Position numbers and translations under genes: made by a program | NCBI GenBank assembly: GCA_010093995.1 | Contig: ML992504.1 | Location: 1,330,885 to 1,394,884, forward strand | Reading direction: 5' to 3' | DNA from: Elsinoe ampelina | Lineage: Eukaryota | DNA length: 64,000 nt | In this document: one piece after another, positions 3,948 through 12,816 of the stretch | Numbering within the stretch: position 1 is the stretch's first letter | Layout of the letters: every line of letters begins with the position of its first letter | The notes under the pieces: model-generated | Databases searched by the model: none | What the model saw: the letters and a program-made list of their open reading frames with translations, nothing else | Told to the model about the DNA's origin: nothing

Positions 3948-4259
3948 GGCTGTTTGCGGAGACTTGAGGCTTGCCCTGTATTTATTCCCTCTCCGTCGTC
4001 CAACAACGACCTTGGAAGCGTGTCAAAACGGTCCCTCTTGTTCCAGGCAGCTATTATGATATGTGCGAGAAGGCAATGTAAGTGGTTGAGATAGATGAAA
4101 GTGAGGGTGAGTGGGGAAAGAAGATGCGGCTCTGTCTCACACGAGATGATCGTCAGGGCCGTTCAATTTTACTGACCCCTCCCCTTGTACTCACTTCATC
4201 ACATCATCTCAATACATAATGTTTCAATATCGACAGTACATACCATAAGATATCTCAGC

Positions 4260-5537
4260 ATGACAGCAGCTCCGTCCTACGTCGCCGTAAAGCGCAAGCG
4301 CGACGATGCGCCGATCCAGTCTCTCATCCTCGAAGAACGCAGAACAAAGCATGCTCGAGTCAACGTCGAGTACAAGCTGAAATCAGTGTCGCAAGCGTCG
4401 AATGAGCAGCCACAGAAACCGATAGAGTCAACAGCTCCAAGGGAGGAGGAGAAGGATAAGGAGGGCGGTGGCGCGACTGCGATTAGTACCCCATCAAAGA
4501 GTCCCTTTGTGAAGAAGACGGATACACTTGCACACAAGGCGATCAAGAACTCGGGTCCACGTCACTTCGAGCTTGCGACCGGAAAGAGGACCGCAGATAC
4601 TGCTGGTCTGCTACCTACCTTCATCGAGCGACCACTGAAGCGATCAAACGTCGAACTCGAGAGCCCGCCTGTACTAAAGACCACCCCTCTAAAGCGACCA
4701 GGCACAAAGAGCACACAAAAGAGCGCATCAAATGCTACGTCAGATCTCAAAGCACTCGGCCGAACCGAGCCTTCAGCCGCGCTCTCAGCCAAACTCAGCG
4801 CACTCGCCTTTGAAGAATCAGGGGAAGCAGCACCCAAGCCACGAGTGACCGTCCAACCACGACCCACCCCACGACGGCGCAGAGAGCCTGTCCCCGCCGC
4901 TCATCCCGCCTCAGACGACGACTACGTCTACGACATCTACATCCGCTCAGCCGCGACCCCTTCCCTACCCCCGGCACCAACGACTCCGAGCATTCACTCC
5001 ACCCCCTCCCCAACCACGCACACCCCGCTCCCACTCCCCACCGACTCCACCGCCCCCCGCTCCCTCACCTCCCTCCCCACCTCCCTCGCCTCCTTCTCAC
5101 CCACCCACCCGGACCCAGACGTAGGCTACCTCATCCTCCCCGACTCGTCCGAATCCTCGTACTTCTGGTCCTCGGACCCTCTGGCGACCAAACCCACCGC
5201 CGACTCGGACACCTCGGACGAAGGCGACGACGAAGACAGCAACGCCGAGGACTTTTACGCAAACGAGTACCCCGACGACGAGGTGGATGGGGAAGACGAG
5301 ATGGGACGGGGCGCGTACGGGTTCAGACACGGGCGAGGGAGCGAGGATGAAGATGAGTATGGCGATGATGGGTGGGGCGGGAGGAGGGGGGTCAGTGATG
5401 AGGATAGCGACGAGGATGCGGCGGGGGAGAATCCGTGGAAGAAGTTCATGGGGAGGGAGAGGAGGAGAATGGAGGAGGAGGAGGAGGAGGAGGAGGAGGA
5501 GGAGTTTGGGAGGCGGGGAGGGGGGGATAGTGATTGA
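4260..5537 (+). CDS. IWR1: Iwr1/SLC7A6OS RNA polymerase II nuclear import factor
   Basis: N-terminal VKRKR..P..SL motif, DYVYDIY, and the acidic DEDSNAEDFYANEYPDDE Iwr1 signature. ATG at 4260 preferred over the upstream TTG. Confidence 0.8.
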   Translation: MTAAPSYVAVKRKRDDAPIQSLILEERRTKHARVNVEYKLKSVSQASNEQPQKPIESTAPREEEKDKEGGGATAISTPSKSPFVKKTDTLAHKAIKNSGPRHFELATGKRTADTAGLLPTFIERPLKRSNVELESPPVLKTTPLKRPGTKSTQKSASNATSDLKALGRTEPSAALSAKLSALAFEESGEAAPKPRVTVQPRPTPRRRREPVPAAHPASDDDYVYDIYIRSAATPSLPPAPTTPSIHSTPSPTTHTPLPLPTDSTAPRSLTSLPTSLASFSPTHPDPDVGYLILPDSSESSYFWSSDPLATKPTADSDTSDEGDDEDSNAEDFYANEYPDDEVDGEDEMGRGAYGFRHGRGSEDEDEYGDDGWGGRRGVSDEDSDEDAAGENPWKKFMGRERRRMEEEEEEEEEEEFGRRGGGDSD

Positions 5538-5802
5538 CGAGTGCGAGGGGAGGGGATGGAGACGAGGAGGTTGTGGTGGTTGTATACTATCTGATCAGAA
5601 GAGGGTGCCGAATCGTGGATGATCGGCACGACTAGTCGCCCACCCCGCACCCTTATCTCTGTTTCTAAAGGTTCCAGAGAGGCAGGTGAATTGTAAATAC
5701 TTAATCCTCCTTGACGCCCACATCCTCCATTCTCTATCCCTCCTGATCGCCTCCCACGTCTGCTCGTAACCTCCTTCTCCTCCTCCCCGACTTCACCGCA
5801 AA

Positions 5803-6708
5803 ATGCCACCCGCATCCCTCATCGGCTCCCCCTCCAACTTCCACATCCTCCACGCAAACTACATCGACCTAACCCGCTCCCACCCTTCCCCACCACCACC
5901 CACCTCCATCCTCCTACCCACTCGCACCCATGGCGTCCAATTCGACCCGGCCAAAACCGCCCTCGTGATCATCGACATGCAGAACTTTTTCCTCTCCCCT
6001 GCACTAGGCCGGACGCAAGGCGCAGGCCACGCTGCCGCGAAGAAGCTGGAAGAGTTCACAATACCTGCCGCGAGAAAGACCGGGGTGAGGGTTGTGTGGT
6101 TGAATTGGGGTTTGACGGAGGAGGATTTGGAGACGATGCCGCCGAATGTGAAGAGGGCGTTTGGGGATGGGGGACGGGAGGTGGAGATTGAGGCTCAATT
6201 CGAGGAGGGGCTGGGTGATGCGGCGGGGTCGGGGAAGGATAAGAAGGTGTATAGAGGGATGGGGACGGAAATGGGGACGGTGGAGGCGGATGGTGAGAAG
6301 GTGGATGCCGGGAGGATGTTGATGCGGGATCAGTGGAACGCTGCCCTTTACCCGCCGTTGGACCGCATGTGGGAAGAGGGAAAGGGCTTGTCAAATCTTC
6401 CAGATGTGTGGATGTACAAGAACCGCATGAGCGGGATGTAGGGTGGTCCGGGAGTGTTTGAGGAGTTCCTGGAGAAGGAGGGTATCAAGACCTTGTTGTT
6501 TACAGGCGTCAATACTGACCAGTGCGTTGCTGGGACGTTGACCGATGCGTACAACAAAGGTTATGATTGCATCATGCTGGCGGATGGTTGCGGAACTACC
6601 AGTCCAAGTTGCGCGCAGGAAGGAATCGAGTACAATGCCGGACGGTCGTGGGGTTTCGTGACTGATTGCGAAGCCTTCGCAAAAGCCGCCGGCAAGTCTT
6701 CGAGCTGA
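5803..6708 (+). CDS. Isochorismatase-like cysteine hydrolase interrupted by one in-frame TAG (6439-6441); either edited/readthrough or a recent pseudogene
   Basis: TALVIIDMQNFFL, VVWLNWG, KNRMSGM*GG, TLLFTGVNTDQCVAGTLTDAY..GYDCIMLADGCGTTSP. ORFs 5803..6441 and 6454..6708 are in the same frame, separated only by the TAG. Confidence 0.8.
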
Positions 6709-6755
6709 GAAGCGACCTGTCGACAATGGATCGTCTCAAGAAAGCAGGAAAAAGC

Positions 6756-8135
6756 TCAACCTGAGACGAAGAAGCTCAGAAGACTGCCGACTGCAAGTCC
6801 GAGCACCAGACAAAGGCCCATGAATCCACCAGCAGCCTCTCTCTCCTCAGGCTCAACCCAGTCAGCAGCTCCCATCATACACGAGCTACCAATATACCCA
6901 TTCGAGATTCCGAACAATACCTGGACGATGGCCAGATAGAAAAAATCGCTCTTTATGACGGCACCTTTGCCTCCAATGTTGCATAGATAATACATGGGTA
7001 TCCAGACGAGCCGTAGAATCGCAAGTAGAAATAGAAGCATTGGTCGATGTGTGAGGAGAAGCTTCGGGTACGCCGTAAGTACACGACCGATAAGATCCCC
7101 GATATTCCACATGAGAAAAGCAAGAGGTACAAATGACGCTGGGTAGAGTATGCGAGGTGCCTCATCGATCGACGTGTTGCTCATTACTTTTTGTGTAAAG
7201 ACTGGAAACAGCATCGTGATGACAAAGGTGGCAAAGACGGCCGAGGCGAGCCAGAAGAGCTTGCGAGCAAGTATTCGAAAAGGCACTCTCTTCTTCGGAC
7301 CGGACGAGGTCGCGCGGTCAGAGCTAGCATCGTTGTGGACAGCGGCTTTAAGCTCTTCAGTGGCTCGACTTTTGACCAGGAAAGAGAAGGAGAAGAACGT
7401 CAAGACGGAAATGAGGATGGAGGTGGAAAAGTAGGCAAGGGCAGCTGTATCCGGGACGGGAGGTGCGTTTGGTACACTTCCTGGAGGCTCAGGGGGCTTG
7501 TCGCTGGTCTTTGCATCAGGCGATGCAGACGGAGACAGGGCAAGCACAAGCCCGATCTGAGCTACACATGGCAAGACTCCGGCGATGCCCTGTCCGACCA
7601 TGATACCTTGAGTGTATCTGCTCTGGCCAAATCCTGACACGAATGCGAAGATACCGTTCTGGAAGAAGCCCGTAGCCACACTGGTGGATAAGACCATGGC
7701 TATGATGAAGCCAAAGTAAGAAGATGCAGTGACTGAGGTGAAGACCTTGGTAGATATCGCGAGCAGGGTAAACACCACCGAGTTGAGCACCAACGCAACG
7801 AAGATGCGCCTGGAGTAGGAAGCGCCCTTCTGCATATTGGTAAGGACGAGCGTCATACCGAGTGTTCCCACGGTCGATGCAGACAGCTCAGCTGCCTGGA
7901 AATTCTTTGCAATCCATGCGCTTGAATGGAATCGCTGCTCCAAGTATGGTCCGGCGGCAAGGAACATGTTCCACGCCCAAAGCATCGATATCCCGAGGAG
8001 GACGAAGATAGAGTACTCAAGCCATGAGAAGGCCGGTCCAGCGACCGCGGATGGCCTTGCGTCTCCATCCTCTGGGATTCCATCATCGATCGCCTGATAT
8101 TCCTGTCTCCCAAACCATGCTCTTATGCGATCCAT
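6756..8135 (-). CDS. Equilibrative nucleoside transporter (ENT/Fun26-like)
   Basis: FVLLGISMLWAWNMFLAA, YTQGIMVGQGIAG, FLMWNIGDLIGR, FGISNGY, EREAAGGFMGL; about 11 hydrophobic segments; single exon. Confidence 0.9.
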   Translation of the reverse strand: MDRIRAWFGRQEYQAIDDGIPEDGDARPSAVAGPAFSWLEYSIFVLLGISMLWAWNMFLAAGPYLEQRFHSSAWIAKNFQAAELSASTVGTLGMTLVLTNMQKGASYSRRIFVALVLNSVVFTLLAISTKVFTSVTASSYFGFIIAMVLSTSVATGFFQNGIFAFVSGFGQSRYTQGIMVGQGIAGVLPCVAQIGLVLALSPSASPDAKTSDKPPEPPGSVPNAPPVPDTAALAYFSTSILISVLTFFSFSFLVKSRATEELKAAVHNDASSDRATSSGPKKRVPFRILARKLFWLASAVFATFVITMLFPVFTQKVMSNTSIDEAPRILYPASFVPLAFLMWNIGDLIGRVLTAYPKLLLTHRPMLLFLLAILRLVWIPMYYLCNIGGKGAVIKSDFFYLAIVQVLFGISNGYIGSSCMMGAADWVEPEEREAAGGFMGLCLVLGLAVGSLLSFFVSG

Positions 8136-9160
8136 CTTGGTGCAGTCCAACCCCACTGACTCTCGGACAGGGCGGACTCAAATTGCGAAACGGTGAGGTC
8201 AATCAAGCGGAGAATCAGCGATATGATTGCATATCGTCCACAATTTCCAGCGATCGCAGAATGTCGAGCCGGGTATGATGGAGTGTGATAGGGCGATGGT
8301 GTGTTGTCAGGAGATGGAAGAAGCTCACATGAGCATGTGGAGGCGATCGGGGTCCGGTCAGATCTTGGCGCGATCTGCCGTCTTGCGTGTGCCTTCCCTT
8401 TCCACTGCCCATCTTCCGCTCGCAACCTCTTCCATGATTGTTGTCTCACGCACTTGTGCCCAAAATTCATCAAGACATACATCAGGAGTCCAGACTATTG
8501 ACATTCGACCGGCAGATCAACCCAAGTTGGTGGAATCTCGTTCGGCCTTGCTCGCTCCGGGTTTAGTATCACTCCGTCTGCCGCAGTGAGGTAAGGCAGT
8601 CAGCTAAGGCCCGTGGCTTAGCGTTTACCACTCTCGATGCGGCTGCTTTTCTGGAAAACCATCCACAAATAGAAGAGCCTGTCATGAAGATCCGGGTCAA
8701 GGCCGGCCTGCGCAATGACGAGAGAGGCACCGACCTTGTGGGATCTGCATCACGGCACACTACCTGCTCTGAGACCTTGCGCCTGTATACCGGTACGTTC
8801 AGCGAGATTGCGCTGATCTATTTCCTGCTCTTTACTAGATCTTGTCATGAGGTAAGTCCTCTCTTGGTGTCGCCTTGCTTACCGGAGGATGGTTGTTGTT
8901 CCGCATATAATAGATCAACATGCAAGTCATTTGCAAACATGCTTCATCCAAGATCGACTCTATTTCGACACCCAAAGCAGATTAGCTTTCCAATATAATC
9001 CTTCACCAGTTCGGTCACAACAGACAGCCTCATTCAGCTATACCGCATTGTACCAGTCTTCCGAACAATATCTCGGCACACCAACACACTACCACGGTCC
9101 TGACTTCACCGCCCATCCTTTGGTAACCCGTACGGCTATATCTCAACGCAGTCAGTCATA

Positions 9161-10069
9161 ATGTCCACTCCACTGCCAACAAATTCACCTTTCGCCTCGT
9201 CGAACTCATCAATCGCTTCATCGTCCAAGGATCAGGCCTCGGGAAGCCGCATATCGACCTCGTCCAGAGCTAGATCGAAGTCGCCTTCTGGCACTAACAT
9301 GTCTACCACTACGACTACCATGACGGACACCCTTCCTCCGTATCGAGCTCCTTCATATCAACCACCCACATACATCCTCACACCTTCAGGCCGTTTCCTC
9401 GATCTTGTCCTCCGCACGTCGAAGAGCACAGAATATTATCTGTCAGTACTTACTGGCCACGATCCACCACTTCTCCTCCGGGCTGGACCTTCTCCTTCAT
9501 CTCCGATAGTCGGGGCTCTCCGCTTCGGCAAGTTCCCAGACGGACAGCTTTGTCTGGGTGACCCGCTAGGATCGTCCAATGCTCGATGGACACCATGGGC
9601 ACGAGAACTTGGCTTCAAGACATTTTCCTTCTCCGTCCCAGGACCAAATGGCGGCGCTTCCGGCTCGAGAAGGTTACGGTGGGAGAAGTCACGTTCCCGC
9701 AAGCACGGTCTTGCCACTCTCGGCAGGACGAAGGGTTGGGTCCTCCGGAACCTTGACACAGACGAGATTCTCGCTTCGTTCAAACAAGAGCAAGTCGGTG
9801 TTGGCAAGCCTGGCGAGAAAGTTGGGGAGCTTAAGTGGTTTAGCGATGTGACTTCTGACGAGGAAGTCGGTAGTACGATGGTACTGGTCGGAATGTGGTT
9901 CCGAATGAGCCAGCTTGAGATTGGCGGTGATTATGAGCGAGTTGTCGCGGCACAGGAGGGCAAAGGAAAGGAGAATGTTGACCGAGTGCATGAGGAGATG
10001 GGCGGCTTGTCTGGAGCATTATTTGGTCAGACCAATGCGTTTGTCGGCGGTGCAACAGACCGGCGGTAG
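9161..10069 (+). CDS. Uncharacterised fungal protein (beta-rich, DUF6593/tubby-like appearance)
   Basis: 302-aa ORF with a Ser/Thr-rich N-terminus, then L..GP...SP.VG, FSFSV...LRW and EILASF...VGELKW patterns seen in fungal hypothetical families. Family assignment is tentative. Confidence 0.55.
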   Translation: MSTPLPTNSPFASSNSSIASSSKDQASGSRISTSSRARSKSPSGTNMSTTTTTMTDTLPPYRAPSYQPPTYILTPSGRFLDLVLRTSKSTEYYLSVLTGHDPPLLLRAGPSPSSPIVGALRFGKFPDGQLCLGDPLGSSNARWTPWARELGFKTFSFSVPGPNGGASGSRRLRWEKSRSRKHGLATLGRTKGWVLRNLDTDEILASFKQEQVGVGKPGEKVGELKWFSDVTSDEEVGSTMVLVGMWFRMSQLEIGGDYERVVAAQEGKGKENVDRVHEEMGGLSGALFGQTNAFVGGATDRR

Positions 10070-10294
10070 CACATGATTTACGCTAACGACGTGACGACAA
10101 GAAACATCGACAGGATTTGTATATAGCAATGATTACGATCACTTTCCGGTCATACAGTCCAAGTATAAAAAGTGCACACAGAGCACAGTAAACTTAATTG
10201 ATCACGTGCTTTCGCGACAAAGCAAATCCGCGTTCATCGGGTCTTCCTTCGCCATATACATTTCTTCAAAGGGATTCACAAATACGCGCACGAC

Positions 10295-10954
10295 ATGTCG
10301 CAACCACCGCTCACTCTCATTGTAGCAGCAACGACCAAAAATGGCATTGGCAAAGGCGGTGGACTGCCATGGCCTATGTTAAAGAAGGAAATGGCATATT
10401 TTGCCCGTGTCACGAAGCGCGTGCCGAAAGCACTGCATCCCCAATCTGATACCAGCAAGAAGGTCCAGAATGTGGTCATTATGGGTAGAAAGACCTGGGA
10501 CAGTATCCCACCCAAGCTGCGACCTCTCAAGGAGCGGATCAACATTATCATCACGAGGCAAAGTCTCGACAGCTTCGCCACATCGCACAAGGATGTCATA
10601 GTCGCAGGCAGCATCGAGGACGGTATTGCTCAACTCGCGAACAAGACGTCTGATGATGCTGCGGTTTCGCCAGGACGGTACTACATCATTGGCGGATCGA
10701 GCATCTATGAGGCAGCGCTGAGATTGCCAAATCGCAAAAACATCCTCCTCACACGGATACAGAAGGAATATGATTGCGACACATCCTTCCCTATCAATCT
10801 TGATAGTGACAAGGCTACCGGTGAAGGATGGAAGAAGAAAAGTAATGCCGAATTAAGCAACTTTGTCGAGGAAGACGTGGAAGACCAGGATATGGAGGAG
10901 ACTGCGGGAGATGAAGAGGTCCGATATCGTTTCACGCTGTACGAACAAGAGTAA
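10295..10954 (+). CDS. DFR1: Dihydrofolate reductase
   Basis: LIVAATTKNGIGKGGGLPWPMLKKEMAYF, NVVIMGRKTWDSIPPKLRPLKERINIII, IIGGSSIY, YDCDTSFP. Confidence 0.97.
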   Translation: MSQPPLTLIVAATTKNGIGKGGGLPWPMLKKEMAYFARVTKRVPKALHPQSDTSKKVQNVVIMGRKTWDSIPPKLRPLKERINIIITRQSLDSFATSHKDVIVAGSIEDGIAQLANKTSDDAAVSPGRYYIIGGSSIYEAALRLPNRKNILLTRIQKEYDCDTSFPINLDSDKATGEGWKKKSNAELSNFVEEDVEDQDMEETAGDEEVRYRFTLYEQE

Positions 10955-11728
10955 CCAACAACTACGAATGATCACAATGAATGTTACGGTTCATTTTCGT
11001 CTGGCTTGACCGTGGCTGTTCTGCTCTGTTGCGCTGGCTGTCTTGCTGCACTCGAGTCGCAGTCATCATCGGCGTGGAAGGCTGGACCTCGGCACAAGGT
11101 CGACAACCAGGACATTTCCCCACAAAGTCCCGGAGGCCCCAAAAATGCCAAGCGTCATGCAGCCTTCACATGCCGAAACCGAAAGAGGAAGCAAAAGGCT
11201 AGACCGACGTCACCTGCCAGGAGCATTTTTGGGGAAGCAATGCAGGGGAGACGACTCCGACAGGCATTGAGAGGCTACATTGACATGAATGAGAGATGCT
11301 ACTGCTTCTCAAAAACATTCAGACAATCAATTGACCACCAAAACTCATCCCTCGGTCCATGACTTCCCCAGATTCTCCAGCATTGTGAGATGAACATCTG
11401 AGCGTTTCCCCTCGTCCCGTCATTCTCCGAGGTACAGCTCCATCCGTCCAGCCTGGAGCTCGGTCAGTTGACTCAAATTTCTGGAACAATTAAACAGAGC
11501 CGCTGTGCCCACTGACAATTCAATTCTTTACTCTTTGTATTTTGCTTCTGTACATCTGCGACTATTACCTTGAATCTCCGCTCAGCCAGGTCGCCAATCC
11601 ATCTCTACCCCGCGTCGTCACAGCAAGTGTCAACAAGGAGAACATCCACGCCCGCAACCCATTGCTTCTTGTACAGGACACTGAGAGCATCACACGAGCA
11701 AACATAGCCAGTGCATGACACGACCAAC

Positions 11729-12816
11729 ATGTCCGCAAAGTCAACAGCTGGGCCGGGGGGCAAGAAACCCGCTTCTGCGGCGACCAATCTCATAGGTATG
11801 CTGGACTACCACCACCGCGAGAATCGGACCACTGACGAGAAGACCAGCCGGAGGAGGTGCAGGAATGATGGAGGCGCTGGCATGCCATCCTCTAGACACA
11901 ATCAAAGTGCGCATGCAACTTTCAAGACGTGCGAGAGCACCAGGAGTGAGTGCCCCCGAACCAACACCACGCCTCTTGGCCATGAAGAACACCCACTGAC
12001 ACCGGCCAGCAAAAACGCCGCGGCTTCATCAAGACCGGCGTCGAGATCGTCAAGCGTGAAACTCCTCTCGGCCTGTACAAAGGCCTCGGCGCCGTCCTCA
12101 CCGGCATCGTACCCAAAATGGCCATCCGCTTCACCTCCTACGAATGGTACAAACAACTCCTCGCCAACTCGGACGGCACCATCGCCTCGAAAGGCACCTT
12201 CTTCGCCGGTCTCGCAGCAGGCGTGACCGAAGCCGTCGCCGTCGTCACCCCTATGGAAGTCATCAAGATCCGTCTGCAAGCGCAACACCACTCCATGGCC
12301 GATCCCTTGGACGTGCCCAAGTACCGCAACGCGGCGCACGCTCTGTACACTGTTGTCAAGGAAGAGGGTGTAGGCGCTTTGTATCGCGGAGTCAGTCTGA
12401 CTGCTCTCCGGCAGGGGACGAACCAGGCTGTCAACTTCACGGCTTACACGGAGCTGAAGGCGTACATCCAGTCGCGGCAGGTGGATCAGTCTGCTGCGTT
12501 GCCTAGCTGGCAGACCGCGGCGATTGGGTTGGTCAGTGGTGCTATGGGACCCATGTGCAATGCGCCTATCGATACGATCAAGACGCGGTTGCAGAAGACG
12601 CCGGCGCAACCAGGGGAGACGGCTGTGGGGAGGATCGTGAATATTGGGAACATGATGTGGAAGCAGGAAGGCGTGAGGGCCTTTTGGATGGGTATCACGC
12701 CTAGGATAATGAGGGTCGCGCCCGGGCAGGCGGTGACGTTTGCGGTGTATGAGTTCTTGAAGGGCGTTCTGGAAAAGGGTAGAGAGGTGATGGAAGGTGG
12801 GTCGTATGAAGAGTAG
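11729..12816 (+). CDS. SFC1: Mitochondrial succinate/fumarate carrier (Sfc1/Acr1)
   Basis: Exons 11729-11795, 11848-11945, 12010-12816 give NLIAGGGAGMMEALACHPLDTIKVRMQ, TPMEVIKIRLQAQHHSMADPLDVPKYRNA and APIDTIKTRLQK: three PxDxxKxRxQ carrier motifs. Confidence 0.92.

Follow-up and report, generated by a model that had tools for sequence, protein, structure and literature searches.

The locus described here raises the question of how a gene that is open on both sides comes to carry one stop codon inside its conserved domain, and whether a full-length protein is still made from it. The gene lies near one end of a 64,000-nucleotide stretch of DNA (hereafter the window) and was marked in a first-pass annotation, made from the letters alone, as an isochorismatase gene with TAG in place of an expected Trp codon, for which A-to-I correction of the mRNA or readthrough was put forward and a recent nonsense allele or a base-call error was named as an equally simple cause. 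Homologues, public sequencing runs, the genes related to fungal RNA editing and the public gene model were examined for their bearing on these readings.

The sequence at positions 6421-6447 is AAC CGC ATG AGC GGG ATG TAG GGT GGT, as first reported, with the A of the stop at 6440. The claim that the frame reopens was borne out as well, with 212 open codons from the ATG at 5803 leading to TAG and 88 open codons following it up to the TGA at 6706-6708 (Table 1). When the stop is read as X, the Pfam Isochorismatase match runs across it (E 7e-16). As a control, every stop of the 64-kb window flanked on both sides by 70 or more open codons (58 in all) was read as X in the same manner, and this TAG was the only one of them to fall inside a Pfam match. 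It is a real feature and not a product of chance, and since it is unique among the 58 stops scanned, a change of the genetic code is rejected, as the first-pass annotation had also held.

Table 1. Positions of the interrupted hydrolase gene, its parts and other features in the window
Feature	Position	Strand	Remarks
5' part, codons 1-212	5803..6438	+	RutB-like cysteine hydrolase (isochorismatase superfamily); Asp58 at 5974-5976, Lys206 at 6418-6420
Codon 86, Thr	6058..6060	+	Ala in 114/119 homologues; G at 6058 (Ala) in X4 and X5, hence variable among isolates
Codon 93, Thr	6079..6081	+	Ala in about 97% of homologues; Thr common to all four runs
Pseudo-intron, 36 nt, GT..AG	6406..6441	+	Apparently used by the public gene model to skip the stop; annotation artefact
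Codon 205, Tyr	6415..6417	+	His in 116/119 homologues, Tyr also in E. australis; Tyr common to all four runs
Premature TAG, codon 213	6439..6441	+	Trp in 119/119 homologues; A at 6440 is the candidate editable base; present in contigs of X1, X3, X4 and X5
3' part, 88 open codons	6442..6708	+	Presumed nucleophile Cys241 at 6523-6525; ends in TGA; no excess decay relative to E. batatas
F-box ORFs	51450, 52649; 54481, 55614, 56734	+ (first two); - (last three)	Pfam matches above cut-off

The window appears to come from Elsinoe ampelina (Dothideomycetes), or to be identical in sequence to it, since a public E. ampelina protein (P0003) matches that of the window at every residue outside a 12-residue gap that ends at the stop. 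A homologue search returned 1308 proteins with E values of 1e-20 or lower, and the best 120 of these include this E. ampelina protein (96% by BLAST), E. batatas (92%) and E. fawcettii (71%), together with E. australis, Sphaceloma murrayae and Myriangium duriaei. For the E. batatas orthologue, the best match among solved structures was the ureidoacrylate amidohydrolase RutB (8bkd, E 1.8e-18), followed by biuret hydrolase and other amidases, and its Asp, Lys and Cys residues align with those of RutB. The reading frame in the window has a PF00857 match above cut-off and the Asp-Lys-Cys triad, as isochorismatase-like cysteine hydrolases do; Asp58 (in 118 of 119 homologues), Lys206 and Cys241 (each in 119 of 119, with the window and P0003 excluded) are taken here to be the catalytic triad, with Cys241 as the nucleophile. 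The score, however, is far under the cut-off of the RutB equivalog TIGR03614 (78.7 vs 377.95 bits), and the fungal subfamily of the window gene has a long insertion. By sequence, the interrupted gene would be a putative fungal cysteine hydrolase, for which "isochorismatase" is merely the superfamily name, and a literature search found no paper that had both "isochorismatase" and "Elsinoe". Because the stop falls between Lys206 and the nucleophile Cys241, we infer that the 212-residue product cannot be active.

Further family members are found elsewhere in the E. ampelina genome, namely L002 (46%, intact), L003/L005, L004 and L006. Trp and Cys are retained in L002, L003/L005 and L004, and L002 and L003/L005 are intact paralogues. 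L004 (G000:C18) is broken up by introns and aligned with the query in three pieces. In the Paraphoma homologue P0111 (480 aa) a further domain of ~210 residues is attached, which many Pleosporales have as a separate protein; either the fusion is genuine or the gene model has been merged.

Conservation at the site was judged from an alignment of 121 rows, with counts made on the 119 full-length homologues that remain when the window and P0003 are left out. The column of codon 213 holds Trp in all 119, E. batatas included, as the first-pass annotation had expected, and in each of the five nearest named relatives (E. batatas, E. fawcettii, E. australis, S. murrayae and M. duriaei). A further search, aimed at shorter homologues, added 119 proteins, of which 45 belonged to the other domain of the fused query P0111 and were dropped; none of the 74 remaining members of the hydrolase family ends at the stop site, 73 having Trp there and one being without the motif. 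Scanning metagenomes for the motif with TAG gave five matches, none of them homologous, a weak blank, as the scan was run without a control for the Trp form. Conservation of TAG in related species, proposed earlier as a check on the idea of a maintained stop, was thus not found, and among the species examined the stop appears confined to one, with E. batatas as the closest comparison.

Twenty-four sequencing runs matched the window, 11 of them with half or more of the sampled words and none of these recorded as RNA; X1, X3, X4 and X5 were compared as contigs over positions 4201-12300, leaving out X12-X17 (small share, possibly other species) and X18-X24, which are raw reads. The DNA run X1, perhaps the source of the assembly and so not independent, has a contig over 5513-12300 at depth 191 with no other letter. 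The contig of X3 (5556-8298, covering two genes) has no differing letter and no gap, and those of X4 (5560-6981) and X5 (5724-7289) have one differing letter each, which is A>G at 6058 and not at 6440. Since X3, X4 and X5 skip two GT..AG introns (11794-11845 and 11946-12009) that X1 keeps, they hold spliced RNA, and in the majority RNA of all three the TAG is unedited and unspliced. X4 and X5 also have T>C at 9174 in common and X5 has two more differences, from which X4 and X5 would come from at least one genotype other than that of the window. The TAG is shared by at least two genotypes from separate studies; it is not a private laboratory mutation, nor is it private to one strain, whereas the first-pass annotation had named a stop private to the strain, with no A>G RNA reads and no downstream peptides, as grounds for giving up editing.

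The differences of X4 and X5 from the window (6058, 9174, 8891 and 5204) are few for the kilobases covered, which suggests low diversity among the sampled isolates. The A>G at 6058 was also considered as an editing event in its own right and rejected as unlikely, as it has C at -1, is the sole letter in the contigs, gives the residue found in 114 of 119 homologues and goes together with a T>C at 9174 in a plus-strand frame.

In the same region, the hydrolase gene and a nucleoside transporter gene on the minus strand (6756-8177) face each other tail to tail, with fewer than 50 bases between their stops, and because the RNA contigs run over both, their 3' ends probably overlap. In a distant part of the window, between 51450 and 57642, five neighbouring ORFs form a cluster, each with an N-terminal Pfam F-box or F-box-like match above cut-off.

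Together with the Trp of all relatives, the TAG in both DNA and RNA and the intact paralogues, these results fit best the recent nonsense allele that had been mentioned at the outset as one alternative, and codon 213 is very probably a young loss-of-function allele. Most likely it is common or fixed in E. ampelina and masked in annotation by an invented intron. Under this reading, a single G-to-A transition would have turned Trp codon 213 into TAG in the E. ampelina line, presumably after its split from E. batatas. The gene is still covered by RNA, and translation would stop after residue 212, ahead of Cys241; the next in-frame ATG is codon 259, also past Cys241, and no active enzyme would be made. 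The loss would be tolerated, perhaps through redundancy with the intact paralogues.

How far the gene has decayed was assessed by comparison with E. batatas, from which the window protein has 25 residue differences besides the stop. The directions of change given here are by-eye readings of the outgroup columns in the alignment. Among the 17 differences before the stop, outgroups side with E. batatas in 8 and with the window in 3, and 6 are unclear; among the 8 in residues 214-301, outgroups side with E. batatas in 2 and with the window in 4, and 2 are unclear. The 3' part has not decayed, which may mean either that the stop is recent on the branch or that a full-length product is still made, and the data fit both equally. 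An absence of 3' decay requires the stop to be recent if the nonsense reading holds, and this is allowed by the isolates that share the stop, which differ at only about four sites in the covered kilobases.

As to frameshifts and stops, of which no further one was found, the first-pass annotation was right in stating that there is no other lesion, but not as to conserved residues. In 89 columns that are at least 95% conserved in 114 reference proteins, the window has private changes Ala86Thr, Ala93Thr and His205Tyr besides the stop, and E. batatas has none; at a 90% cut-off the counts are 3 for the window and 1 for E. batatas. An excess of 3 vs 0 is too small for significance, and hints at relaxed selection. 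All three substitutions are upstream of the stop, and Ala86Thr, missing from X4 and X5, would have arisen after it if the stop arose once. Repeat-induced point mutation (RIP) changes TpG to TpA and CpA to TpA. It would account for these changes at best in part: the stop (TpG to TpA) and His205Tyr (CpA to TpA) fit, but neither Ala86Thr nor Ala93Thr does, and no AT-rich block is present in the window.

The alternative that gave the locus its interest is restorative A-to-I editing, in which A6440 would be deaminated in a stage outside those sampled here (ascomata, or under stress), UAG would be read as Trp and the full enzyme would be made. The site has several traits in its favour. Edited premature stops of F. 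graminearum originate most often as TAG at a Trp codon according to the accessible part of PMC10776026, and the context G-U-A-G-G-G, with U at -1 and G at +1 and +3, agrees with the fungal preference for U at -1 and a purine at +1/+3 (PMC11156358, in part). The stop is common to at least two genotypes, the 3' part is undecayed, and the species does have a sexual stage, if a poorly known one (PMC8295512, in part). However, the -1 and +1 bases are automatic for any TAG, and of the 21 ways in which a single C>T or G>A change can create a stop in the hydrolase gene, 7 yield TAG at a Trp codon, so that a third of random transition stops would resemble the one at codon 213. Predicted folding has A6440 in a loop in a 31-nt fold and paired in minimum-energy folds of at least 61 nt, its unpaired probability dropping from 1.00 to 0.11 as the flanks grow from 15 to 100 nt, and the folds around it are no better than those of shuffles (z -0.03 to -1.2).

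The RNA contigs bear on editing more directly. No letter other than A was found at 6440 in any of the three RNA runs (X3, X4 and X5), where contigs drop rare variants and lack strand and where no run is on record as being of sexual-stage origin. For the same reason, editing at the level known from hyphae would be invisible here: in F. graminearum without sexual cofactors, 33 sites are edited, at <5.5% on average (PMC11169179, in part). The edited stops of that species arose at ancestral nodes, often more than once (accessible part of PMC10776026), whereas the stop at codon 213 is not conserved beyond E. ampelina in the species examined. Three further conserved residues are changed and intact paralogues exist, which also argues against a protein kept in use through editing.

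With respect to lineage and machinery, the accessible parts of PMC11156358, PMC7306014 and PMC13431901 report fungal editing in Sordariomycetes and in Pyronema (Pezizomycetes), and say that neither Aspergillus nidulans nor Botrytis cinerea showed it; the first two call its presence in other fungal classes an open question. A literature search on editing in Dothideomycetes, with most subscription journals outside its coverage, found no report of it in the class. In Sordariomycetes editing needs the residues MV at 500-501 of Ame1 in place of the ancestral KN, and the Pezizomycetes origin is separate, as stated in the accessible portion of PMC11087585, the supplement of which has one E. ampelina Ame1 orthologue. 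In the genome itself, two full DUF726 proteins (L013 and L012) were found, and MV is absent from the Ame1 interface column of both, with KS in L013 and LA in L012. Across 151 rows this column has MV in 14 and KN in 10; it was placed 30 residues before the catalytic Ser, by that offset and the MV/KN split rather than by aligning a named sequence of F. graminearum. L016, presumably RID-like from its motifs, is free of in-frame stops once a canonical-looking 60-nt intron is set aside, and its F. graminearum counterpart is an edited pseudogene. One file of the supplement to PMC10776026 gave no match for isochorismatase, PF00857, cysteine hydrolase, Elsinoe or amidase, and other gene tables of that work may list a homologue. 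The proposal that the stop is corrected by editing or readthrough therefore goes unsupported, with no A>G in the RNA contigs, no other species with the stop and no MV-type Ame1. Restoration of the codon by editing is very unlikely, and equally doubtful is the corollary that the TAG has been kept by Tad2-Tad3 acting without an MV-type Ame1, which would be a third independent origin of fungal editing, in Dothideomycetes.

Readthrough or near-cognate suppression of UAG would yield small amounts of the complete enzyme, sufficient for continued selection on the 3' part. The open and undecayed frame after the stop is consistent with this, and as RutB of the E. coli type carries Phe at the corresponding position, the enzyme might accept a different aromatic residue there. 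Leaky stops are known with a following CARYYA-type motif, but here GGTGGT follows, and no stable downstream fold is predicted (z -0.20). Readthrough at UAG usually inserts Gln, Tyr or Lys, against Trp in all 119 homologues, and the stop is conserved in no relative; readthrough at this site is very unlikely.

A third way around the stop is taken by the public gene model, in which the 12 residues absent from P0003, listed as a 289-residue protein without Lys206, correspond to a frame-keeping 36-nt GT..AG interval that has the stop itself as acceptor. The first-pass annotation had seen no plausible intron around the stop; a formal one does exist and is used in P0003, but the conclusion stands. 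The interval has a poor donor (GTGTGG) and no branch-like site inside, and its joint is found in none of the RNA contigs of X3, X4 and X5, where other introns are skipped. Splicing would also remove Lys206, Arg208 and Ser210 (each in 119 of 119 homologues), so that the product would be without a catalytic residue anyway. The intron of the public model is an annotation artefact, and a genuine intron that removes the stop is largely refuted and extremely improbable. A false small intron was likewise placed by automated annotation at the edited CHE1 site of Fusarium (PMC11169179, in part), which can be counted on the side of editing; since CHE1 is masked in the same way, the false intron says nothing on which explanation holds. 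Lastly, an assembly or base-call error is refuted, its probability being next to nil, by the TAG of X1 at depth 191 and of X3, X4 and X5 from other studies.

In the ordinary case of a nonsense allele, the locus would represent a recently lost amidase in a grape pathogen, with a wrong public gene model, and it carries the caution that invented introns can conceal edited stops and nonsense alleles alike. Were editing to be shown here, fungal mRNA editing would be extended to Dothideomycetes, and given sexual-stage RNA the site offers a cheap single-locus probe for editing in the class.

In comparison with known systems, the locus shares with the F. graminearum pseudogenes with edited premature stop codons (PSC; PUK1, AMD1, RID1 and CHE1, in the accessible parts of PMC10776026 and PMC11169179) a single in-frame TAG at a Trp codon with both sides intact, U at -1, and a stop hidden by a false small annotated intron. 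It differs from them in that no edited RNA was seen, the stop occurs in one species among those examined, and the host is a Dothideomycete without MV-type Ame1; moreover, 69% of the PSC genes are without homologues outside Pezizomycotina (PMC10776026, in part), whereas the hydrolase gene has distant ones such as RutB. From a typical young nonsense pseudogene the locus is set apart by the absence of any frameshift or, as yet, of measurable downstream decay, and by RNA contigs that still cover the gene. It resembles such a pseudogene in its one stop, its intact relatives, its few changes at conserved sites and the intact paralogues that accompany it in the genome.
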